Of a stretch of DNA of 11,645 bases, positions 2,710 through 11,645 are shown piece by piece; positions within the stretch are counted from its first letter, which is position 1; every line of letters begins with the position of its first letter. A model generated the notes under the pieces. It saw only the letters and a list, made by a program, of their open reading frames with translations, searched no databases and was not told the origin of the DNA. Source of the DNA: a virus; IMG/VR virus record IMGVR_UViG_3300013103_000848, positions 1 to 11,645 of that record; one strand, given 5' to 3'. The position numbers were made by a program, and so were the translations under genes.

Positions 2710-2882
2710 AAAACCAAGAAACTTTAAGTGAGAAAAGTATGACATCTGAAGAAGAATACATCACACCCGAAACAGTGTGGAAAGAAATCTGTAAATTATA
2801 CATTAAATTCACTGATGAACTTGGAGAAAAAATATATGAATTTGATAGGATGATGAAATCTAACAATTCTTCCCAGCAATAA
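2706..2882 (+). CDS. Hypothetical protein, 58 aa (below the ORF-track cutoff)
   Basis: It has an ATGA overlap with the upstream ORF, and AGGAG (2694-2698) lies 7 nt upstream. Translation: MKNQETLSEKSMTSEEEYITPETVWKEICKLYIKFTDELGEKIYEFDRMMKSNNSSQQ. Confidence 0.55.
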   Translation: MKNQETLSEKSMTSEEEYITPETVWKEICKLYIKFTDELGEKIYEFDRMMKSNNSSQQ

Positions 2883-3147
2883 CTTTTTTAACTTTATTTC
2901 TTAAACAACGAGGGCATATCCATTTTTCATCAGGATAAAGCCAAATCAATCCATTTTGATTTTCTGCTGTTGCTTTTCTTAATTCTCTACCGCAAATATC
3001 ACATTTATCAGACAACTCAACAGCAAACTCAACAATGCCTAATCTATCTTTTATTGCATTCTCTAAAATCTCAGAAATATTCACTTCTTTCTCTTTTATC
3101 TTATTATGCAATTCAGAATCTATTGAAGTCATCACCTGTTTTTTCAT
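2860..3147 (-). CDS. Ribbon-helix-helix plus zinc-ribbon transcription regulator candidate, 95 aa; the only minus-strand gene
   Basis: The N-terminus VMTSIDSELHNKIKEKEVNISEILENAIKDRLG fits a CopG/Arc-type RHH pattern. The C-terminus CDICG...CPRC is a four-Cys ribbon. The gene is divergent from the large non-coding region and has its own TATA box. Confidence 0.75.
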   Translation of the reverse strand: MKKQVMTSIDSELHNKIKEKEVNISEILENAIKDRLGIVEFAVELSDKCDICGRELRKATAENQNGLIWLYPDEKWICPRCLRNKVKKVIAGKNC

Positions 3148-3168
3148 ATCAAATAGAAATATATATAC

Positions 3169-3176
3169 TTTATAAA
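3169..3176 (-). promoter_or_regulatory. TATA box (palindromic tttataaa) for the minus-strand regulator gene
   Basis: There are 21 nt between the box and the ATG at 3147 on the minus strand. This matches the spacing class of the + strand promoters. Confidence 0.5.
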
Positions 3177-3226
3177 TATATGTGTTCTGGACAATCTATA
3201 TTTTAAAATTGTCTATCTGGGTTTTG

Positions 3227-3325
3227 ATATATATATATATATGAATATGCATATATATAATAGCCCCCCCACTACGGAGTTATTCTGATTATATATATCT
3301 CTGGAAATATATATATATATATATA
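3227..3325. repeat. Cluster of four (AT)n dinucleotide tracts interrupted by a C7 run; candidate DNA unwinding element
   Basis: (AT)8 at 3227-3242, atatatata at 3251-3259, C7 at 3264-3270, (AT)4 at 3291-3298, and a 19-nt AT alternation at 3307-3325. Confidence 0.9.
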
Positions 3326-3330
3326 AATTC

Positions 3331-3345
3331 GCTTAACCCTTAAGC
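3331..3345. repeat. Short inverted repeat gcttaa-ccc-ttaagc
   Basis: A 6-bp stem with a 3-nt loop, read directly. Confidence 0.6.
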
Positions 3346-3489
3346 CAGGACTTTAAACACCTTTGAAAGCCTCACATAACACTCGGAAGCGTAAATACTA
3401 TTAGATGCTTGACAATTCAAAAAAACTTGATTGCCTATAACTTAAAATTGCCTTTCATTTAAATAATTGTGTTATTACTAGAAAGTGTT

Positions 3490-3505
3490 CCGCTCTCTGG
3501 AGCGG
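3490..3505. repeat. Hairpin ccgctc-tctg-gagcgg
   Basis: A GC-rich 6-bp stem with a 4-nt loop in the gene-free region. Confidence 0.6.
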
Positions 3506-3520
3506 TGCTTTATGGCTTTT

Positions 3521-3535
3521 AGAAAGATTTAAATA
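3521..3535 (+). promoter_or_regulatory. Orphan promoter-like element (agaaaga plus tttaaata) with no ORF downstream
   Basis: It has the same BRE-like purine stretch plus TATA box as the three + strand gene promoters. The 12-mer atttaaataatt occurs at 3467-3478 and 3527-3538. No ATG lies at the expected +1 (about 3558). Confidence 0.4.
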
Positions 3536-3547
3536 ATTCATTCACTT

Positions 3548-3569
3548 GCTTTTTTGCTTGCAAAAAAGC
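3548..3569. repeat. Perfect 9-bp hairpin gcttttttg-cttg-caaaaaagc
   Basis: 3548-3556 pairs with 3561-3569, leaving a 4-nt loop. Confidence 0.8.
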
Positions 3570-3670
3570 CTTCTTCTCATTCCTCTCTTCATCTAAAAGA
3601 CCATAAAGATAAGGGAAATAACAGAAAGAAGAATTGATTATCGGGTGAATTTTGACTTTTTTAGCCAAAA

Positions 3671-3688
3671 TGGGCAAGGTTTTGCCCA
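3671..3688. repeat. Perfect 7-bp hairpin tgggcaa-ggtt-ttgccca
   Basis: 3671-3677 pairs with 3682-3688, leaving a 4-nt loop. Confidence 0.8.
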
Positions 3689-3784
3689 CTCCTCTTCTTT
3701 CGGAGTTCTACCCTCTAATCAATATTGATCATTCTCTAGAATGACTTATTAATTCAAACCAATTCACATCGGTTTATTTCCTAA

Positions 3785-3860
3785 GAACTTCCCCCAACCC
3801 CCTAACCCCCTTCCCCGTGGGAAGGGGGAACTTCCCTCCACCCTCCCCGCCCACCACCCC
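3785..3860. repeat. C-rich (+ strand) / G-rich (- strand) island with two G-quadruplex/i-motif-capable tract clusters, flanked by a 9-nt direct repeat
   Basis: Cluster A: C5-aa-C5-taa-C5-tt-C4 at 3791-3816. Cluster B: C3-t-cc-a-C3-t-C4-g-C3-a-cc-a-C4 at 3834-3860. The 9-mer gaacttccc occurs at 3785-3793 and 3828-3836. Confidence 0.85.
3806..3828. repeat. Perfect 10-bp GC-rich hairpin/dyad cccccttccc-cgt-gggaaggggg
   Basis: 3806-3815 is the exact reverse complement of 3819-3828, with a 3-nt spacer. It is embedded in the C-rich island. Confidence 0.9.
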
Positions 3861-4012
3861 TTTTCTTATTCTTCTTATCTCTTCTTTGCGATTGTTGGAG
3901 TTTTTCTTTTTTTTTTATGTAGGAACCCGCAAAAAAATTTTTTAAAAATATTTTTTCTCTCCGTCATTCTTCAGGGTTCAAAAATATTTCCCAATCCTTA
4001 AATTATCCCCAT

Positions 4013-4029
4013 AGAAAAATCTTTAAATA
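4013..4029 (+). promoter_or_regulatory. Archaeal-type promoter candidate (agaaaaatc plus tttaaata) for the terminase-to-scaffold operon
   Basis: The TATA box lies at 4022-4029, with 19 nt to the terminase ATG at 4049. No SD is present between them. Confidence 0.6.
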
Positions 4030-4048
4030 CTCAGCTACTCTCTTACTT

Positions 4049-5359
4049 ATGAAATATGATATTACCCAGCCATGGAAAACTCTTGACAAATGGCAAAAGG
4101 ACTATATCAATACCCCGCCAGAACAAGACTGCTTTCTTCTAACTGGACGACAATCAGGAAAAACCGCCGCAATGTCCATAAAAATTGTAGAAATGTGTGT
4201 TCACCATTTCAAAAAAGAACAAAATATCTTAATCTGCTCAATCACAGAAAAACAAGCTTATAGAATGCTTGCAAAAGCTCTTGTTTATGCAAAGATAAAA
4301 TATCCAAAATTTGTAATCACAAAAGGCAAAGACAAACCAACCAAACACATAATCAAATTCACAACAGGAGCAGGTATTTACTCCTACGCCGCGGGAGAAT
4401 CAGGCGAAGGATTAAGAGGAGACACAATAAAAAAATTAATGATTGATGAAGGTTCTGGAATGAGCGAAGAATTTTTTGTGGCAACTACCCCTATGTTATC
4501 TGTATCAGGGGGAAGTATGGACATAGCCAGCACTCCAAGAGGAAAATATGACAAAGAAGGAAACGAACTATTTTTTTATAAATGTTCAAAAGATAAAAAT
4601 TTTAAAAAGTTTTATGTCTCTGCTGAGGATTGTCCAAGACACTCAAAAGAATTTCTGCAAAGACAAAAAGAGAGATTTACAAAACTGCAATACGCACAAG
4701 AATATCTGGCACAATTTTTAGATGAAGTTCAATCTTTTTTTGATCTTGACTTAATTAAAAAACTCTGCGTTGAAAAAGTCCCAAAAGAAATAATAACATC
4801 TGGAGATAATTTTATCGGCTGTGATGTTGCCAGAAAAGGAATAGATAAATTCACTTATGAAATCTTTAACAGAACAGGACACAGAGGAAATTACAAATTA
4901 AGACATGTTTTTAATCTCACAACTAACAATATTCCAATTCCAGAAAGCGTAAGAAAAATTATCTCTCTAAATAAATCCTACAACTTTAAAAAAGAATACA
5001 TTGACAGCGGGGGAATGGGAATAGCTGTTTGCGACTTGCTCCGTGAAGATAAAGCAAATAAAAATAAAGTTGTTGAAATAAATAACTCTTCAAGAAGATA
5101 TACAGAAGACGGAGAAAAAAAGAAAACAGGAATTTTAAAAGAGGACTTATATAAAAATCTCGCTGTTCTTATGGAACAAAATAAAATTACTTTTTTGGAT
5201 GATGACGAAGTAAAGAGTTCTTTATCTTCAATCCAATACGAATACAACTCATCAGGACGCTTAATAATCTGGGGTTATAACGACCATATCGCAGAGGGCA
5301 TTGTCAGAGCGGCCTGGTGCATAAAAGACAAAAGTTTAAATATCCTTGCTTTTTGTTAA
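4049..5359 (+). CDS. terL: Terminase large subunit (ATPase plus RNase-H-like nuclease), 436 aa
   Basis: Walker A is GRQSGKT (aa 33-39, nt 4145-4165) and Walker B-like is KKLMIDEGS. Nuclease-domain acidic motifs are FIGCDVARKGIDKFT, YIDSGGMGIAVCDLL and YNDHIAEGIVRAAW. The size and motif order are typical of TerL. Confidence 0.9.
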   Translation: MKYDITQPWKTLDKWQKDYINTPPEQDCFLLTGRQSGKTAAMSIKIVEMCVHHFKKEQNILICSITEKQAYRMLAKALVYAKIKYPKFVITKGKDKPTKHIIKFTTGAGIYSYAAGESGEGLRGDTIKKLMIDEGSGMSEEFFVATTPMLSVSGGSMDIASTPRGKYDKEGNELFFYKCSKDKNFKKFYVSAEDCPRHSKEFLQRQKERFTKLQYAQEYLAQFLDEVQSFFDLDLIKKLCVEKVPKEIITSGDNFIGCDVARKGIDKFTYEIFNRTGHRGNYKLRHVFNLTTNNIPIPESVRKIISLNKSYNFKKEYIDSGGMGIAVCDLLREDKANKNKVVEINNSSRRYTEDGEKKKTGILKEDLYKNLAVLMEQNKITFLDDDEVKSSLSSIQYEYNSSGRLIIWGYNDHIAEGIVRAAWCIKDKSLNILAFC

Positions 5360-5437: not shown

Positions 5438-5803
5438 ATGACAGACACAGGAATATTTGCAACAACAGAAGAAGTCCAGAGAAAAGCTGGAGCAAACGCA
5501 AACGCAACAGCGAAGTCAGAAGCATACATTAATGACTTCATAGCACAAGCAGAAAGTACGATTAATGTTATGTGCAGATATAATTTTTCTGATAAGTTCT
5601 CAACTTTAAACACAGATGTAAAACAAATTCTCAAAGAAGTTGCTTCAAACCTCGCTGCAATCTATGTAATTAACTATGATATGTCTGGTTTTACTTCAAG
5701 AACTGAAGCAGAAAACATGATTAATATTCTCAGAGATGCCTCATTAAGAGGACTTTCAATATTAAGAAATCAACAAGCGGTGACTTTTATAAATGGCGCA
5801 TGA
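5438..5803 (+). CDS. Possible head-tail adaptor/connector (gp6-like), 121 aa
   Basis: Its size and N-terminal pattern (TTEEVQRKAG...SEAYINDFIAQAESTIN) resemble gp6/gp15-type head completion proteins. This call rests on position and pattern only. Confidence 0.45.
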   Translation: MTDTGIFATTEEVQRKAGANANATAKSEAYINDFIAQAESTINVMCRYNFSDKFSTLNTDVKQILKEVASNLAAIYVINYDMSGFTSRTEAENMINILRDASLRGLSILRNQQAVTFINGA

Positions 5804-6221
5804 TTTTAAAAGATTTCCAGAACTGACAAACTCACAAATGCAATTCTATTATTTTGACAGCCCACACCAGCAAATCACAGAAAGTTTTAGGGCAAGAGTT
5901 GTCAAAGTCATAGATGGCGACACAATAAGGGTAACCTGCGATTTTAGGGATTTTGCTTTTCCAATCCGACTGATAGAAATAAACGCCCCTGAAATGAACG
6001 AAGGCGGACAGGAAAGTAAATCATGGCTTGAAAATCAAATAATAGGCGAAGATATAGATGTAATTGTAGACCCAAACTTTAGAGTGGGAAAATGGGGGCG
6101 ATTATTAGGGAGGATTATCAGCAGAGGACTTGACATGGGAGAGGCAAGCATGCGTTTAGGTTTCTCAACAAAATTCGGAGAAAGAAATTTTGAACAGGAG
6201 ATGAAAAGAATATGGTATTAA
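5793..6221 (+). CDS. Staphylococcal nuclease (SNase/thermonuclease) homolog, 142 aa
   Basis: VVKVIDGDTIRV ... IRLIEINAPE ... WGRLLGRI matches the SNase DGDT / RL-x-x-[DN]-A-P-E / GRxL motif order. Asn replaces the usual Asp of the D-[AT]-P-E motif. Confidence 0.8.
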   Translation: MAHDFKRFPELTNSQMQFYYFDSPHQQITESFRARVVKVIDGDTIRVTCDFRDFAFPIRLIEINAPEMNEGGQESKSWLENQIIGEDIDVIVDPNFRVGKWGRLLGRIISRGLDMGEASMRLGFSTKFGERNFEQEMKRIWY

Positions 6222-6646: not shown

Positions 6647-7741
6647 ATGACAGAAAATAAAATAGATAGTGCAATTGCAAGCGACTTAACAAACGCTATG
6701 ACAGACTTCTCAGTGGATAGTGCAACAACCGACGCTAACACAAACCAAAAAGAAACCTCATGGATGGACACAAATTTTCCAAAATATCTTGGATACTACA
6801 AAGATGAGAAAACTCCTGAACTAACTGCAGTCATTGACGCCAAGGCAACATGGACTATCGGAAAGGGCTATAAAGCAGATGAAGAGACAACAATGCTTTT
6901 AGATACAATCAAAGGAAACGGAAAAGATACATTCAACACAATATTAGAGAACGCAATGAGAGTAATGCTGTTGGGCGGAAACTTCTACGCTCATATTATA
7001 AGAGATGATGAAGGGAATCTTATTAATCTAAAACCATTAGACCCGTCGGTGATGAAACATATTTTTGGAAGAGATGGAATGCTCATCAGGTTTGAACAAG
7101 TTTCCAAATTTCCAGGAAACAAACCGAAGAAGTTTGAGCCAGAAGAAATATTTTATCTTTCAAGAAATCGGATAGCTGATGAGATGCACGGGACAGGAAT
7201 AGCCCAGAAATTAAAATTAATTATTGATATGAAGAATGAGGCAATGGCAGACCAGAGAAAAGCGTTACACTGGAATGTCATACCCCGTTGGAAATTCAAG
7301 TTAAAAACAGACGACCCGACAGAAATCGCAGCTTACAAAGCAAAGCAGGACGCAGCAACAGGAACAGGAGAAAATATCTATGAGCCGTTTGATGTTTCTG
7401 AAAGCGAATTAATTTCAGTAGCCCCGAACGCAACATTAAACCCTATGGCATGGATACAATATTTAGACAATTTGTTTTATGAAATGGCAGGAGTCCCTAA
7501 AATCATTCTCGGGGGTTCAGGAGAATTTACAGAGGCATCAGCAAAAATTGCTTATCTTGCTTTTCAGCAGGGAGTTGAGGAAGAACAACTTTTTATAGAA
7601 GAACAGGTTCTGGCACAATTAAATCTTTTGATAGAATTAGAGTTTCCAGCGTCACTGGAGAACGACCTTTTATCTGATAATAAAAAAGATGGCGCTCAAA
7701 ATATAGATGCAAGTGAAACTACTGCAGGGGAGGGACAATGA
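6647..7741 (+). CDS. Portal protein, 364 aa
   Basis: Its size and position lie between TerL and the scaffold/capsid genes. The segments TFNTILENAMRVMLLGGNFYAHIIRDDEGNLINLKPLDP and later helix-rich regions resemble Phage_portal family architecture. An in-frame stop lies immediately upstream of the ATG. Confidence 0.7.
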   Translation: MTENKIDSAIASDLTNAMTDFSVDSATTDANTNQKETSWMDTNFPKYLGYYKDEKTPELTAVIDAKATWTIGKGYKADEETTMLLDTIKGNGKDTFNTILENAMRVMLLGGNFYAHIIRDDEGNLINLKPLDPSVMKHIFGRDGMLIRFEQVSKFPGNKPKKFEPEEIFYLSRNRIADEMHGTGIAQKLKLIIDMKNEAMADQRKALHWNVIPRWKFKLKTDDPTEIAAYKAKQDAATGTGENIYEPFDVSESELISVAPNATLNPMAWIQYLDNLFYEMAGVPKIILGGSGEFTEASAKIAYLAFQQGVEEEQLFIEEQVLAQLNLLIELEFPASLENDLLSDNKKDGAQNIDASETTAGEGQ

Positions 7742-9710: not shown

Positions 9711-9725
9711 AGAAACATTTAAATA
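9711..9725 (+). promoter_or_regulatory. Archaeal-type promoter candidate (agaaaca plus tttaaata) for the decoration/capsid/fibre operon
   Basis: The TATA box lies at 9718-9725, with 22 nt to the ATG at 9748. The intervening sequence is T-rich and has no SD. Confidence 0.6.
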
Positions 9726-9747: not shown

Positions 9748-10158
9748 ATGGCAGACGAAGCAATCCTAAGGCTTGAAACAAGACAACCAATTAGTTTCAA
9801 TAAAGCCTCTGCAACTGCATTTGAAAAGGGTGCTTTTGTAGATTTAAATGATGATTTAACAGCTGTCGCTGCAACAGCAGACGGGCATGTTGGCGGAATT
9901 GTCGCTGTTGAAGAAGTGGCAAACCAGCACAGCACTGTGGCTGTTTATCGTGAGGGCTTTTTCTATGGAACAGCGTCGGCAGCAATTACTATCGGACAAA
10001 CTCTTGCTTTAACAGGCTCAGGGAATAAACTTAAACCATCTACTGCCTCAGATGTAGCAAGCAAAACCGTAGGCATAGCATTAGAAGCAGCAAGCGGTAA
10101 TGGCGAGCAATTCTTATTTGAACTAAAACCAGGCGTGGGAGTTAACGCATTCGCATAA
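9748..10158 (+). CDS. Head decoration / capsid cement protein candidate (DUF2190-like), 136 aa
   Basis: It is a Gly/Ala/Val-rich beta protein (GAFVDLNDD, GHVGGIVAVEE, VAVYREGFFYG, GQTLALTGSGNKL, VGIALEAASGNGEQFLFEL). It lies immediately upstream of, and is translationally coupled (TAATG) to, the capsid gene, the usual arrangement for DUF2190-type decoration proteins. Confidence 0.6.
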   Translation: MADEAILRLETRQPISFNKASATAFEKGAFVDLNDDLTAVAATADGHVGGIVAVEEVANQHSTVAVYREGFFYGTASAAITIGQTLALTGSGNKLKPSTASDVASKTVGIALEAASGNGEQFLFELKPGVGVNAFA

Positions 10159-11024
10159 TGGCAGATACAGCAGGACAAGCACTAATAAGAGGGATTAACC
10201 TTGATAAGAAAGCAAGAAACTATCAGAATGAAGAATCTATTTTTTACAAGGAAGTTAATGTTAGTGTATCCTCATCAAGAGAAATACGATATTATCAAAA
10301 AACATCAGGATATTTAACTGCAACTTCTCCAGCGAGCATTGTAATCGCAGAGGGTGCTTTGCCTTTTGTTTTAGAAACTTCTTGGACAAGAAACACAGCT
10401 TACACAAAAAAGTATTCTGTTGATAGCCCTTTAATTACTGTGGAAGATGAGAAAGACAGCGAAGTTAGGGTATTTATGGATAATCTTGAGGAAATTACTG
10501 GAGCTGTTGTTAATGAAAGAGAGGGAGACATCTGGGATGTAGCAACAGAAGACCAGACACCAGTTAATATTAATTCTGTAACTTCTACTGCTGCGTGGGA
10601 TGCAGCCTCAGGGCAGGACCCTATGGAAGATGTAGCTGAAGCAGTGCAAAAGATTAGAGAACAAACTAAAAGGAAAGTTGTAAATCCTAAATTATATGTT
10701 TCTGCAAAAGGAGAAAAAGATTTAAAGGTTTGGATTACTTCAATGAAAGGAAGTTCTTGGAGTGAATTAGCTTCTAAAGTAGTTGTGGATGGAGTTTTGA
10801 CACGATTTGGCGGATGTTCTGTTGTAGTTTCTGAAAATGTAACTGCTGATTATGCTCTTGTTGCGGACTTGAAAAAATCTACTGAATACTGGGAGTTCTT
10901 TCCTTTGAAAACTGCAATAATCACAGAAGAATTAATCGGAAGAAAAATAAGAGTGATGACAAACGGAATTGCAGTTTTAACAAGACCAAAATTCAACTGC
11001 TTGATTACAAACACAGAGGCATAA
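10158..11024 (+). CDS. Major capsid protein, HK97-fold candidate, 288 aa
   Basis: It follows the scaffold and decoration genes. The segment TAAWDAASGQDPMEDVAEAVQKIREQT...NPKLYVSAKGEKDL resembles the conserved W-x-(n)-P-[IM]-x-D and following helix region of HK97/lambda-E-type capsid proteins. The call was made by eye. Confidence 0.75.
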   Translation: MADTAGQALIRGINLDKKARNYQNEESIFYKEVNVSVSSSREIRYYQKTSGYLTATSPASIVIAEGALPFVLETSWTRNTAYTKKYSVDSPLITVEDEKDSEVRVFMDNLEEITGAVVNEREGDIWDVATEDQTPVNINSVTSTAAWDAASGQDPMEDVAEAVQKIREQTKRKVVNPKLYVSAKGEKDLKVWITSMKGSSWSELASKVVVDGVLTRFGGCSVVVSENVTADYALVADLKKSTEYWEFFPLKTAIITEELIGRKIRVMTNGIAVLTRPKFNCLITNTEA

Positions 11025-11435: not shown

Positions 11436-11597
11436 ATGGCGGCTGGAGATGTGACTGTTCAGATTGTGGAAAATGCAACTGCGAGTTCAGTGGATACTGC
11501 TATCACAGCAATGAGAAACGGTGCTAATGATAAATGGTTAATGACTTCTATAAATAATGGACAGGATGTTTTGATTGTAAATATTGAGGAAGCATAA
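11436..11597 (+). CDS. 53-aa protein homologous to both termini of the LamG protein (candidate anchor module)
   Basis: It starts directly after the upstream stop, with GGGGTG 9 nt upstream. Translation: MAAGDVTVQIVENATASSVDTAITAMRNGANDKWLMTSINNGQDVLIVNIEEA. See the finding on the nested LamG insertion. Confidence 0.6.
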   Translation: MAAGDVTVQIVENATASSVDTAITAMRNGANDKWLMTSINNGQDVLIVNIEEA

Positions 11598-11645
11598 AAT
11601 GGCTCAGGGAGATGTTACCTGTAATCTAACAAATGCTTTACCTAA
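11541..11645. repeat. Terminal direct repeat copy 2 (exact duplicate of 1..105)
   Basis: Base-by-base identity with 1-105. Confidence 0.95.
11599..11645 (+). CDS. 5' end of the LamG gene (duplicate of 59..105, truncated by the window end)
   Basis: It lies within terminal repeat copy 2 and is identical to 59-105. Confidence 0.8.
   Translation, partial: MAQGDVTCNLTNALP

Follow-up and report, generated by a model that had tools for sequence, protein, structure and literature searches.

A modular non-coding block upstream of the terminase gene as the probable transcriptional control region of a small archaeal virus

Location and content of the non-coding block

The window, by which we mean the whole 11,645-nt stretch of viral DNA analysed, carries a 105-bp repeat at its ends and represents a complete genome unit of 11,540 bp. 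The virus host is uncultivated. All genes except one are located on a single purine-rich strand. A block of 901 bp (3148-4048, 7.8% of the unit) lies between a regulator gene and terL. The initial annotation had singled it out as a gene-free stretch, about 8% of a genome that is very compact elsewhere, and this description was confirmed: it is the sole long non-coding stretch, and every other intergenic gap is 126 bp or shorter. Every element listed there was found again, with the A/T palindromic block better placed at 3931-3956 than at 3932-3957. An independent assembly of the same virus (L030; loci of relatives also carry L numbers) was 99.9% identical overall and showed zero differences inside the block. 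The features of the block and its two neighbours are given below, with the strand where one applies.

2860-3147, minus strand: RHH-zinc-ribbon regulator gene, left neighbour of the block
3148-3186, minus strand: predicted regulator promoter, TATA TTTATAAA at 3169-3176, 21 nt before the leaderless ATG at 3147
3190-3213: dyad GACAAT-N12-ATTGTC upstream of the regulator promoter, a candidate operator read from the sequence
3227-3325: AT microsatellite, four (AT)n tracts as inverted repeats, C7 run at 3264-3270
3331-3345: dyad GCTTAA-CCC-TTAAGC
3457-3468: first copy of the 12-nt repeat ATTTAAATAATT, no purine-rich BRE on the plus strand
3490-3520, plus strand: terminator-like hairpin CCGCTC-TCTG-GAGCGG (dyad 3490-3505), then T-rich, directly upstream of P0
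3519-3689, minus strand: mechanical ORF of 56 aa, GTG start
3521-3569, plus strand: P0, predicted archaeal BRE/TATA promoter with a palindrome, 12-nt spacer between TATA and palindrome
3527-3538: second copy of the 12-nt repeat ATTTAAATAATT, part of P0
3570-3663, plus strand: pyrimidine-rich start of the untranslated stretch, long imperfect hairpin, T6 run at 3657-3662
3671-3688: perfect 7-bp hairpin TGGGCAA-GGTT-TTGCCCA, in the hairpin-dense variable part
3688-3706: hairpin ACTCC-N9-GGAGT, adjoining the preceding one
3785-3860: C-rich island, 10-bp arms at 3806-3828
3791-3828, plus strand: C-run/C-run/loop/G-run element, perfect 10-bp dyad at 3806-3828
3817-3945, plus strand: mechanical ORF of 42 aa, GTG start
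3834-3860, plus strand: CCACC-type C-rich tract CCCTCCACCCTCCCCGCCCACCACCCC
3888-3943, plus strand: module D (56 nt), with GCGATT box (3888-3893), T-rich spacer and core GGAACCCGCAAAAAAATTTTTT (3922-3943)
3931-3956: A/T palindromic block AAAAAAATTTTTTAAAAATATTTTTT, an A-tract/T-tract, overlapping the 3' part of module D
3957-4012, plus strand: spacer without any ATG
4013-4048, plus strand: predicted proximal terL promoter, BRE/TATA AGAAAAATCTTTAAATA, TATA at 4022-4029, 19 nt before the leaderless ATG at 4049
4049-5359, plus strand: terL (terminase), right neighbour of the block

Coding status and structure of the block

Hidden genes were sought among ORFs of at least 20 aa, by Pfam/PHROGs searches with the 56-aa ORF and through alternative stop-codon readings, and were rejected on all three counts. 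The initial claim that no ORF exceeds about 25 aa held for ATG starts only (longest 30 aa); GTG starts open the 56-aa ORF on the purine-rich minus strand and the 42-aa ORF on the plus strand. These two ORFs, and the fact that TAG is the stop codon of 0 of the 23 genes of the genome, are what speaks for a protein gene that escapes notice through an unusual start codon, stop-codon recoding or the shortness of its product. However, neither ORF had a protein-family match or a counterpart among about 90 relatives, where tblastx likewise gave no similarity; the 56-aa ORF overlaps P0 and its palindrome; recoding of any single stop gave at most 107 codons, of low complexity; and independent gene calling on L030 placed no gene within the block. 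A hidden gene is thus very improbable. Pfam and PHROGs HMM scans of 19 proteins (including nearly all products of at least 54 aa) detected no replication protein and no small terminase, in line with the initial annotation, nor orc1/cdc6 or any other element-encoded initiator.

Perfect hairpins with arms of at least 7 bp are concentrated in the block: five occur in its 901 nt versus one in the remaining 10,351 nt, and dinucleotide shuffles contained 0.72 on average and reached five in 0 of 200 cases. Folding z-scores were -5.3 for the plus strand and -6.0 for the minus strand. Terminator-like sites numbered three versus 0.7 expected.

Conservation of the block among relatives

The virus belongs to a family with more than 900 TerL homologues, whose contigs top out at about 12-13 kb; a literature search found no description of this family and nothing directly relevant on virus-borne ORBs. 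We compared the window with about 90 relatives with TerL 40-80% identical and contigs no longer than about 13 kb. At the corresponding place in their genomes, relatives have 0.5-1.2 kb of non-coding DNA with the same modules, and the modules that they share stand in the same order and on the same strand: P0, C-run element, module D and terL follow one another wherever parts co-occur. In every case the block is flanked by RHH-type regulator genes, which fall into three kinds. The initial annotation had proposed conservation among relatives as a check, and the outcome was positive for architecture, with nucleotide identity limited to about 75 nt. When positions 3100-4100 were compared by blastn/tblastx with 29 and then about 90 related loci, only the start of terL and the roughly 75 nt of module D were recovered, and the sequence between modules could not be aligned among relatives. 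A search of a phage collection with the block gave no match, an IMG/VR search with the module D pattern gave one chance match, and k-mer motif discovery across the gaps returned TATA-like words only. As judged from these comparisons, the block is built from modules conserved across a large family and is not a random spacer.

The window is rearranged with respect to relatives. Its regulator gene is inverted and moved, homologues of this gene lying on the plus strand between the gap and terL in L002 and L037, and a miniprotein gene has been lost. The Hjc/HNH, zinc-ribbon and CopG-like genes that relatives carry between the gap and terL are absent. Because of this rearrangement, part of the 901 bp may be leftover sequence.

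Promoter P0 and its palindrome

P0 consists of the BRE AGAAAGA (3521-3527), the TATA box TTTAAATA (3528-3535) and a perfect 9-bp palindrome, GCTTTTTTG-cttg-CAAAAAAGC (3548-3569), whose centre coincides with the predicted transcription start at about 3557, 23 nt past the TATA box. The initial annotation had noted the TATA-containing repeat and the 9-bp hairpin as separate items; both are present, yet together they make up a single conserved unit of promoter and palindrome. Two other promoters of the window, those of the cement gene and terL, are almost the same as P0 (AGAAAGATTTAAATA); the cement-gene promoter (9711-9725) agrees with it at 13 of 15 positions. An ORF downstream of P0 was found neither in the window nor in any relative.

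The promoters of the block, on whose type the initial annotation was silent, are predicted to be of the archaeal type. BRE/TATA sequences are found at 3521-3535 (AGAAAGA-TTTAAATA), 4013-4029 (AGAAAAATC-TTTAAATA) and, on the minus strand, 3169-3176 (TTTATAAA). In first-in-operon genes the TATA box precedes the ATG by 19-22 nt (terL 19, regulator 21, cement 22), and internal genes of the window have GGAG-type ribosome-binding sites. The leaderless ATGs, 18-22 nt past the TATA end, lie where transcription is predicted to start (about 20-25 nt past TATA), at the distance needed by leaderless genes of archaea. The divergent regulator promoter and the terminase promoter of the initial annotation were both borne out at these distances.

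Since MAFFT put the palindromes out of register, P0 units were counted by a geometric scan. The composite of promoter and palindrome gave 25 hits on the plus strand upstream of terL, in 24 loci including the window (L018 has two), compared with about two in dinucleotide shuffles; the minus strand gave eight, mostly flanking the same palindromes. The palindromes are always perfect, with arms of 8-12 and loops of 3-11, and their centres lie 20.5-25.5 nt past the TATA end. The stems are highly variable, 20 different ones being present among 23 tabulated loci, and compensatory double changes separate the near-identical genomes L003 and L005 as well as L016 and L024. A hairpin or cruciform accounts for such palindromes no less well than a binding site for a dimeric repressor, in which the half-site spacing would be fixed. 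At the position of the terminator-like hairpin upstream of P0, a hairpin or T-run terminator of the early operon is found in L010, L016, L024 and L043.

Module D and the terL promoter

No other non-coding element of the family is as well conserved as module D, which was found in 42 loci, on the plus strand only, mostly as a single copy per genome and upstream of terL except in two or three loci, where the match lies just downstream. The two boxes, GCGATT and GGAACCCACAAAAAATTTT, are separated by 38-41 nt in 35 of 38 loci, and identity with L043 and L035 amounts to 79-80% over 60-75 nt. The spacer of the window holds a T5 run (3901-3905) and a T10 run (3907-3916). In many relatives an ATG follows the T-run of the module by 2-20 nt and opens a zinc-ribbon miniprotein, HNH or TerL gene; no ORF directly follows the module in the window. 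The module is conserved with or without a start codon behind it, and far beyond a usual BRE/TATA, which suggests recognition by a conserved viral protein, for example the terminase. We read module D as either a putative packaging-operon promoter with leader or a putative pac/cos signal.

The A/T palindromic block of the initial annotation is present, yet belongs to this 56-nt module, which had been missed; it could serve as TATA on either strand. Relatives have a zinc-ribbon miniprotein gene of 28-55 aa and/or a regulator gene in the place of the spacer at 3957-4012, which is probably a remnant after loss or relocation of these genes.

Hairpins, C-runs and T-runs of the middle part

The first 25 nt or so of the pyrimidine-rich segment resemble L026 and L010. 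Its T6 run, about 100 nt past the predicted P0 start, might terminate or attenuate transcription early; four genomes (the window, L003, L005 and L008) have T5-T6 runs at +91 to +108, and five have T-runs at +300 to +400. A transcript from P0 would likewise stop at the T-runs of module D, at about +344 to +350. The hairpin-dense variable part is present in all relatives, with 101 hairpins in 7.9 kb of gaps versus 34 in shuffles, an enrichment of at least 3-fold.

The C-run element reads CCCCC-AA-CCCCC-TAA-CCCCC-TT-CCCC-GTG-GGAAGGGGG. Elements of this type were found in 12 loci, in one orientation throughout (0 on the other strand) and always between P0 and module D. In L043, L032, L010, L037, L034, L006 and L026 a CCACC tract immediately precedes module D. 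G-quadruplex motifs are confined, within the genome, to the minus strand of the CCACC tract and the C-run element; relatives do not share this G4 potential, and it was rejected as a family feature.

Searches of the block with Rfam 15 covariance models gave zero matches at an E-value of 1 or below, and a tRNA search gave none; in 16 relatives Rfam detected two tRNAs only, both outside the gaps. Mismatches in the 101 hairpins of 19 gaps comprised 10 G-T, 14 A-C and 43 other, in proportions equal to those of shuffles. These counts are de-duplicated; an overlapping count (15 G-T vs 31 A-C) lost its difference after de-duplication. Lacking a wobble bias, the hairpins lend no support to a structured RNA, and the ncRNA locus put forward initially was not upheld, with no Rfam match and no G-U bias in the hairpins of either strand.

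The regulator side

HMM scans assigned the N-terminus of the regulator to an RHH/Arc/CcdA-like type. The least stable 100-bp window of the genome, 3160-3259 (dG -100.2, 3.3 sd away from a genome mean of -123.4 with an sd of 7.0; GC 0.18), falls on the microsatellite and the neighbouring regulator promoter, and has the character of an AT-rich duplex unwinding element (DUE). The second most stable 100-bp window is 3763-3862. Unrelated AT-rich microsatellites adjoin the regulator promoter in relatives, and in 9 of 15 the least stable window of the contig lies there, in the equivalent gap. The dyad at 3331-3345 had no counterpart in relatives.

Interpretation of the block

We consider it probable that the block is the main transcriptional control region of an approximately 11.5-kb archaeal virus with tailed-phage-type packaging and capsid genes. 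At its left end would lie the promoter of the divergent RHH-zinc regulator, with the AT microsatellite alongside. The terminator-like hairpin would come next, followed by a strong archaeal promoter, P0, starting in the middle of a palindrome; if P0 is active and regulated through the palindrome, the latter would be its on/off switch site. P0 would fire into about 350 nt of untranslated, hairpin-rich and C-rich DNA, in which T-runs at about +100 and about +350 could stop or attenuate transcription. The two-box module D may mark the start of the packaging and structural operon, as promoter with leader rather than, or as well as, packaging signal, and the TATA box at the right end would give a leaderless terL mRNA. 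Of the initial reading, the non-coding control region with promoters stands, but an origin, a pac site and an ncRNA are not established, module D being a candidate for the pac site. A purely transcriptional model leaves the C-run element, the CCACC tract and many unrelated hairpins unexplained, and most of the block would stay untranscribed if the T6 run at +100 terminates efficiently. An origin or a pac/cos site inside the block is plausible.

The alternative closest in weight, compatible with the transcriptional reading and quite possible though short of an even chance, is an origin used by host machinery with no viral replication protein: the AT microsatellite would be the unwinding element, and the palindromes, C/G-run dyads and, in some relatives, ORBs would bind an initiator or form structures. 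The unrecognisable replication protein, the occurrence of the least and second most stable DNA of the genome in one block and the same situation in 9 of 15 relatives agree with it, as do hairpins without wobble bias, which are expected of DNA-level palindromes. In archaea, origins are intergenic regions of 0.7-2 kb in which repeats flank an AT-rich DUE, a layout that the block fits, and in Haloarcula a G-rich inverted repeat is an origin enhancer (PMC5333045, PMC1868953 for the layout; PMC5333045 for the enhancer). The euryarchaeal ORB consensus is GTTCCAGTGGAAAC-AAA----GGGGG with invariant cores TTCC and GAA (PMC1868953, PMC1904270). Near-consensus boxes (GTTCCAGTGGAAAT-GAT-GGGG and similar) adjoin the microsatellite in L006, L008, L012 and L017, which points to recruitment of host Orc1/Cdc6 by at least part of the family, and non-coding DNA of the family shows a 6.4-fold enrichment of the core TTCC-N3-GGAA. 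However, these boxes are not universal and some lie outside the gap. In the window block, a PWM built from the ORB-like sites of relatives scored 3.1 at best (shuffle median 2.8, 95th percentile 8.8), and the only dyad of TTCC and GGAA has an N5 spacer, a spacing class for which non-coding DNA shows no enrichment. With both tests negative, the likeness between TTCCCCGTGGGAAGGGGG and an ORB plus G-string was unsupported. The AT block of the window lies about 300 bp left of P0, not beside GC hairpins as in relatives, and AT-rich DNA is expected at promoters as well. A reversal of GC skew, a check suggested in the initial annotation, does flank the block, but it is explained by gene orientation: with all genes but one on one purine-rich strand it is confounded, and we rejected it as an origin marker. 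The easily melted (AT)n DNA on which the origin had first been based is indeed the genome-wide stability minimum, but no ORB exceeds chance and the origin is not established. Rep-Arvir rolling-circle initiators do not fit, being larger than the early proteins of the genome (<120 aa), and AGV1 has been reported as lacking ORBs. With its least stable duplex and its many palindromes, in a genome that encodes no replication gene, the block is where we infer that the host replisome would most likely enter. That P0 triggers replication rather than ordinary gene expression is a bolder and improbable variant, suggested by a start inside a palindrome followed by hairpins and the C-run/C-run/G-run element; transcription from P0 would melt the DNA or supply the host polymerase with an RNA primer, and the hypervariable perfect palindrome would gate expression and replication alike.

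Three further readings concern parts of the block. It is rather unlikely, though not negligibly so, that module D, possibly with the A/T block, is a pac/cos site at which the terminase cuts just upstream of terL. As a conserved, mostly single-copy site beside the terminase gene, strand-specific in its 42 loci, of nearly constant spacing and kept whether or not a start codon follows, it looks the part; intrinsically bent A-tract/T-tract DNA is common at pac/cos sites, and the module D core is such a tract. HK97-like phages have their cos site between the terminase genes and an HNH gene situated at the end of the genome, and the HNH-bearing relatives L020 and L104 have module D just upstream of the HNH-terL pair. 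Against this, no small terminase is known that would read the site, and the core abuts the first operon ATG in many relatives, as a promoter-proximal leader would. Family contigs are circularly permuted or end at varied places, which also speaks against it; because contigs are permuted or fragmented, their ends are uninformative on termini and were rejected as evidence. A similarly doubtful reading is that P0 makes a discrete functional RNA that starts at 3557 and measures about 100 nt (to 3662) or about 350 nt (to the T5/T10 runs). Its C-rich CCUCC/CCACC 3' part or its hairpins would either work in trans, such as by base-pairing to purine-rich ribosome-binding sites, or serve as a replication primer. 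A strong conserved promoter with no ORF behind it in any relative, T-runs at consistent distances, the strand specificity of the C-run element and CCACC tract, and conserved-loop hairpins with covarying stems (CC-TCACTCCGTTC-GG) in L024, L002, L037 and L016 would suit such an RNA, but Rfam matches are absent in the window and 16 relatives, hairpin mismatches have no G-U preference, both strands fold equally well relative to shuffles and the sequence between modules cannot be aligned. As the predicted start is inside the palindrome, the best-conserved hairpin would even be outside the RNA. Finally, the middle of the block, promoters exempted, might be mostly decaying DNA left by the move of the regulator gene and the removal of genes that relatives have upstream of terL, its palindromes arising by template-switch mutation and not by selection. 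The missing genes, the opposite strand and side of the regulator homologue in L002 and L037 and the lack of sequence conservation outside modules are compatible with this, but tblastx found no gene remnants, a gap of 0.5-1.2 kb carrying these modules persists in relatives that keep those genes, the rest of the genome is packed very tightly, and element order and strand are conserved. We find this account unlikely, well below the packaging and RNA readings.

The family consists of miniature viruses with tailed-phage-type packaging genes, archaeal expression signals and no recognisable replication genes. Lacking such genes, they must carry most cis-acting information in the sole non-coding block: an early/late switch, probably replication and perhaps packaging. 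The gain is a parts list of testable units, namely the rapidly diverging P0 palindrome, the C/G-run element and the two-box module before the terminase gene.

Comparison with known systems

The cos region of HK97-like phages shares with the block a conserved non-coding module directly upstream of the terminase gene, and relatives with an HNH gene show module D before the HNH-terminase pair. The window, however, has no HNH gene and no small terminase, and its module D may simply be promoter and leader. Archaeal oriC-type origins are likewise intergenic blocks of about 0.7-2 kb between divergent genes, with an AT-rich melting segment and GC-rich inverted repeats, and several relatives have near-consensus ORB boxes beside the microsatellite. 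The window differs in having no ORB above chance, no neighbouring orc1/cdc6 and, in place of iterated boxes, unrelated palindromes.

Transcription-primed (R-loop) origins are known from ColE1 (RNA II), phage T4 (ori(uvsY)/ori(34)) and the mitochondrial LSP-CSB region, and a replication-triggering P0, if true, would be their archaeal-virus counterpart. In both cases a replicon without its own initiator has a promoter followed by several hundred untranslated, structured nt, here the predicted P0 and 350 nt downstream, with C/G runs and an unwinding-prone segment. The P0 transcript would however be C-rich, giving a weak RNA-DNA hybrid, and instead of a G-rich transcript or non-template G4, the G4 motifs are on the minus (template) strand and absent in most relatives.

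Archaeal repression through palindromic operators over the start site is exemplified by TrmB-family and NrpR-type regulators. As there and in temperate-phage immunity regions, a small regulator gene lies beside a promoter cluster, a palindrome covers the predicted start of P0, and its sequence diverges between related viruses like immunity specificities. The block differs in having one palindrome per genome, with variable arm and loop lengths and no repeated operators, and integrase and lysogeny genes are absent.

In the late region of lambda, PR' is followed by the 6S RNA and tR', which is read through by Q antitermination. The block is archaeal, with putative oligo-T terminators, a longer and hairpin-dense leader and no antiterminator identified, but the arrangement is alike in both: a promoter before the packaging and structural genes, an untranslated leader ending in terminators, and the packaging genes next.

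Genome unit and gene content

The window carries an exact 105-bp repeat at its ends (1-105 and 11541-11645), and L030, a second assembly of this virus, has a 441-bp self-overlap. The genome is therefore complete at 11,540 bp, as a circle or a unit derived from a concatemer. L030 differs from the window at nine positions, none of them inside the gene-free block. This is a very short genome for a virus encoding a terminase, a portal and an HK97-type capsid. The following genes were located:

44-838, LamG-type fibre
2860-3147, minus strand, RHH (Arc/CcdA-like) protein with a zinc ribbon, the RHH-zinc regulator
4049-5359, plus strand, large terminase, terL
5793-6221, SNase-like nuclease
6647-7741, portal
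10158-11024, major capsid protein

A cement protein and a head-tail adaptor are also encoded. Pfam and PHROGs scans of 19 window proteins, small early proteins included, gave no match to a replication protein or a small terminase. Among the 23 plus-strand genes, 14 end in TAA and 9 in TGA; TAG does not occur as a stop. The last gene (11436-11597) encodes a 53-aa product with 46% identity over 35 aa to the C-terminus of the LamG fibre; both proteins end in ...IEEA, and their N-termini read MAAGDVT (53-aa product) and MAQGDVT (fibre). This product looks like a LamG-less fibre paralogue adjoining the fibre gene across the circle junction. The leaderless ATG of first-in-operon genes is preceded at a distance of 19-22 nt by a TATA octamer, with a purine-rich BRE; genes inside operons carry GGAG-type ribosome-binding sites. 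This is the archaeal expression pattern of BRE/TATA promoters and leaderless mRNAs.

Structure and conservation of the 901-bp block

No gene was called at 3148-4048 in either assembly, and every other intergenic gap was at most 126 bp long. Each sequence element listed for this block in the initial annotation was found within one base of where it had been placed. The accompanying statement that no ORF exceeds about 25 aa held for ATG starts only, as there are two ORFs with GTG starts, one of 56 aa (minus strand) and one of 42 aa (plus strand). These two have no homologue in the relatives and no family match, stop-codon recoding of the block revealed no gene, and a hidden gene is highly improbable.

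Five perfect hairpins with arms of at least 7 nt lie in the 901 nt of the block versus one in the remaining 10.35 kb, a number reached in none of 200 dinucleotide shuffles. Folding z-scores for the two strands were -5.3 and -6.0. The structure content of the block is above chance. The 100-bp stretch of lowest stability in the genome (3160-3259) falls within it, and so do the second most stable stretch of that length (3763-3862) and the only G-quadruplex motifs of the genome (minus strand). The features discussed below are:

3457-3480, minus strand, first copy of a 12-nt TATA repeat with the sequence before it
3521-3569, plus strand, P0, a predicted BRE/TATA promoter with a palindrome: AGAAAGA-TTTAAATA, a 12-nt spacer and the perfect palindrome GCTTTTTTG-cttg-CAAAAAAGC
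3888-3943, plus strand, module D, a two-box element: GCGATT, a T-rich spacer with T5 and T10, then GGAACCCGCAAAAAAATTTTTT
4022-4029, plus strand, second TATA, of a predicted proximal terL promoter, 19 nt before the terL ATG

The block was compared with 29 IMG/VR relatives and later with about 60 more loci (L-numbers). In most relatives with sufficient sequence, this position is taken up by an ORF-poor gap of 0.5-1.2 kb. Conservation, as looked for among relatives, was seen in the same parts, order and strand, but nucleotide similarity did not extend beyond the terL start and the roughly 75 nt preceding it. Judged from sequence, the relatives show the block to be a conserved, modular feature of the family, and that it is leftover DNA is unlikely.

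Relatives, likely hosts and gene rearrangement

TerL homologues numbered 925 at E <=1e-30, on contigs of up to about 12.7 kb, and the closest known relatives of the window were in the Loki's Castle marine-sediment assemblies SDBS-SDBU. Members of the family also occur in MAG bins assigned to Woesearchaeota, Thaumarchaeota, Melioribacteraceae and Candidatus Nealsonbacteria. As each of these members stands alone as a contig of about 11-12 kb, the bins are unreliable as host assignments; the two bacterial ones probably reflect mis-binning. Two relatives of about 11 kb carry tRNA genes (L008 1639-1713, L018 10843-10891).

Immediately upstream of terL, some relatives encode an Hjc-like Holliday-junction resolvase with the motif SAGSHSPIDV (L003, L012, L013, L017, L031, L087) and others an HNH endonuclease (L008, L009, L016, L019, L020, L024, L045, L100, L102, L104). 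The window has neither of these and has the SNase-like nuclease instead. In many relatives the terL start is overlapped by a gene for a CxxC...CxxC zinc-ribbon miniprotein of 28-55 aa, lying between module D and terL (L003 2818-2928; also L016, L017, L004, L012 and L087). This miniprotein, which may replace a small terminase, is missing in the window, L034 and L035.

In L002 and L037, homologues of the RHH-zinc regulator are encoded between the gap and terL, on the plus strand. In the window the regulator gene, with its promoter and AT microsatellite, is inverted and located left of P0. An AT-rich microsatellite adjoins the regulator promoter in relatives too, with a repeat unit unrelated from virus to virus: (TAC)n, (GTAA)n, (GATA)n, (TTAA)n, (GA)n, (AT)n or a 15-nt minisatellite. 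In 9 of 15 cases no other DNA on the contig was less stable than this microsatellite. From the inversion and the gene absences, the 901 bp would thus comprise two ancestral intergenic pieces and a stretch of lost genes (3957-4012).

The predicted P0 promoter and its palindrome

Scanning for perfect palindromes 8-14 nt downstream of a TATA octamer gave 25 plus-strand matches in 24 loci, the window included, versus about two in dinucleotide shuffles; the eight minus-strand matches mostly flanked the plus-strand palindromes. Among 23 tabulated loci there were 20 different stems, with arms of 8-12 nt and loops of 3-11 nt, and in all of them the palindrome centre lay 20.5-25.5 nt past the TATA end. 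Leaderless genes of the family start 18-22 nt past the TATA end, which is the place of the palindrome centre. P0 and the cement-gene promoter of the window are identical at 13 of 15 positions, and compensatory double changes separate the near-identical pairs L003/L005 and L016/L024 at the palindrome. The initial annotation had correctly noted a TATA repeat (3527-3538) and a perfect 9-bp hairpin but listed them apart; the scan, the geometry and the promoter match indicate that they form one unit. P0 therefore appears to be a strong promoter with the palindrome on its predicted start site.

No ORF follows P0 in any genome. T-runs occur at +91 to +108 (window, L003, L005, L008) and at +300 to +400 (window, L010, L015, L016, L038). 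The palindrome could be the operator of a fast-evolving repressor, resembling an immunity specificity, or it could form a hairpin or cruciform; the latter is favoured because arm and loop lengths vary. On the minus strand, AACACA precedes the first TATA repeat copy (3457-3480), as it does the regulator promoter. This copy could serve as an additional leftward promoter, but there is a T7 run some 15-20 nt downstream of it.

The variable part and the C island

Across 19 gaps, 101 hairpins with at least 7 pairs were found versus 34 in shuffles, most of them perfect and sequence-unrelated. Their mismatches showed no G-U preference on either strand, which argues for DNA-level palindromes over a selected RNA fold. 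Some relatives, unlike the window, have up to five hairpins in a row with covarying stems and a conserved 11-nt loop, TCACTCCGTTC, closed by CC/GG (L024 3572-3793; L002 73-119; L037 2498; L016 4340-4365; L015 3407-3431). The TCACTCCGTTC loop resembles the 16S rRNA 3' end (UCACCUCC).

The C island of the window has two counterparts in relatives, a C-run/C-run/loop/G-run element in 12 loci, always in a single orientation, and a CCACC tract just upstream of module D. Its G-quadruplex potential is not conserved. Directly upstream of module D, L046 carries about five copies of a 15-nt minisatellite, GTATTAGTATGTAGT (45-115); other relatives show a C-rich tract or microsatellites at that site.

Module D

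The two boxes of module D were found in 42 loci, never on the opposite strand, and were 38-41 nt apart in 35 of 38. The A/T palindromic block of the initial annotation is present and proved to be the 3' end of this module. Module D lies upstream of terL except in two or three loci. In many relatives the first ATG of the packaging operon, be it that of TerL, of an HNH endonuclease or of the zinc-ribbon miniprotein, comes 2-20 nt after its T-run. The window and a second subgroup have no ORF there.

Function of the block

The firmest reading is that the block is a transcriptional control region, its promoters being identified from sequence and geometry. On this reading it holds the predicted regulator promoter, P0 as a regulated promoter that would fire into an untranslated leader with T-run stops, module D as the putative start of the packaging and structural operon, and the predicted proximal terL promoter. 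We think it rather doubtful that P0 yields a discrete ncRNA, as Rfam gave no match, a wobble signature was absent and the sequence was not alignable. Module D might be a packaging site. It is conserved well beyond the needs of a BRE/TATA promoter, with or without a start codon after it, and lies just upstream of terL, or of the HNH-terminase pair where relatives have the HNH gene; even so, this role is on the unlikely side.

The block is the obvious candidate for a replication origin, because the genome has no recognisable replication gene, its stability minimum adjoins palindrome-rich DNA, and the block has a size typical of archaeal origins (PMC5333045, PMC1868953). In several relatives, near-consensus origin recognition boxes (ORB), GTTCCA[CG][AT]GGAAA[TC]GAAGG, some with a G-string, adjoin the microsatellite. 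That of L006 reads GTTCCAGTGGAAAT-GAT-GGGG versus the euryarchaeal consensus GTTCCAGTGGAAAC-AAA----GGGGG (PMC1868953). Exact TTCCACAGGAAA recurs in at least four distinct genomes, and the core TTCC-N3-GGAA is 6.4-fold enriched in non-coding DNA of the family. ORB-like boxes, mostly in non-coding DNA, were located as follows:

L004, 5
L006, 1303
L008, 2790 and ~2830
L010, 1560
L012, 1790 and 6784
L014, 450
L015, 2551, 2684 and 4035
L069
L085, 172

However, these boxes are neither universal nor always within the gap, and the block of the window itself gave a negative ORB test. The best ORB-like site of the window, TTCCACAGTAATTAAAGGG (10427-10445, minus strand; PWM score 16.5), lies outside the block, inside the capsid gene, and is probably due to chance. 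The GC skew does reverse around the block but follows gene orientation, which confounds it as an origin marker. An origin here is a real possibility, though somewhat short of probable.

Comparison with known systems

Neither the virus family nor the start-site palindrome, the C/G-run element and the two-box module was found in the searchable literature. The block, of which these three are the parts, is a viral non-coding control region and possibly an origin. It is like an archaeal origin in composition but has no ORB boxes above chance, the defining feature, and it is like an HK97-type cos region in position only. Transcription-primed origins have a similar layout but a different strand composition. 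In the way it would work, the block corresponds to a control region of a phage to which the leader of a late operon is joined.
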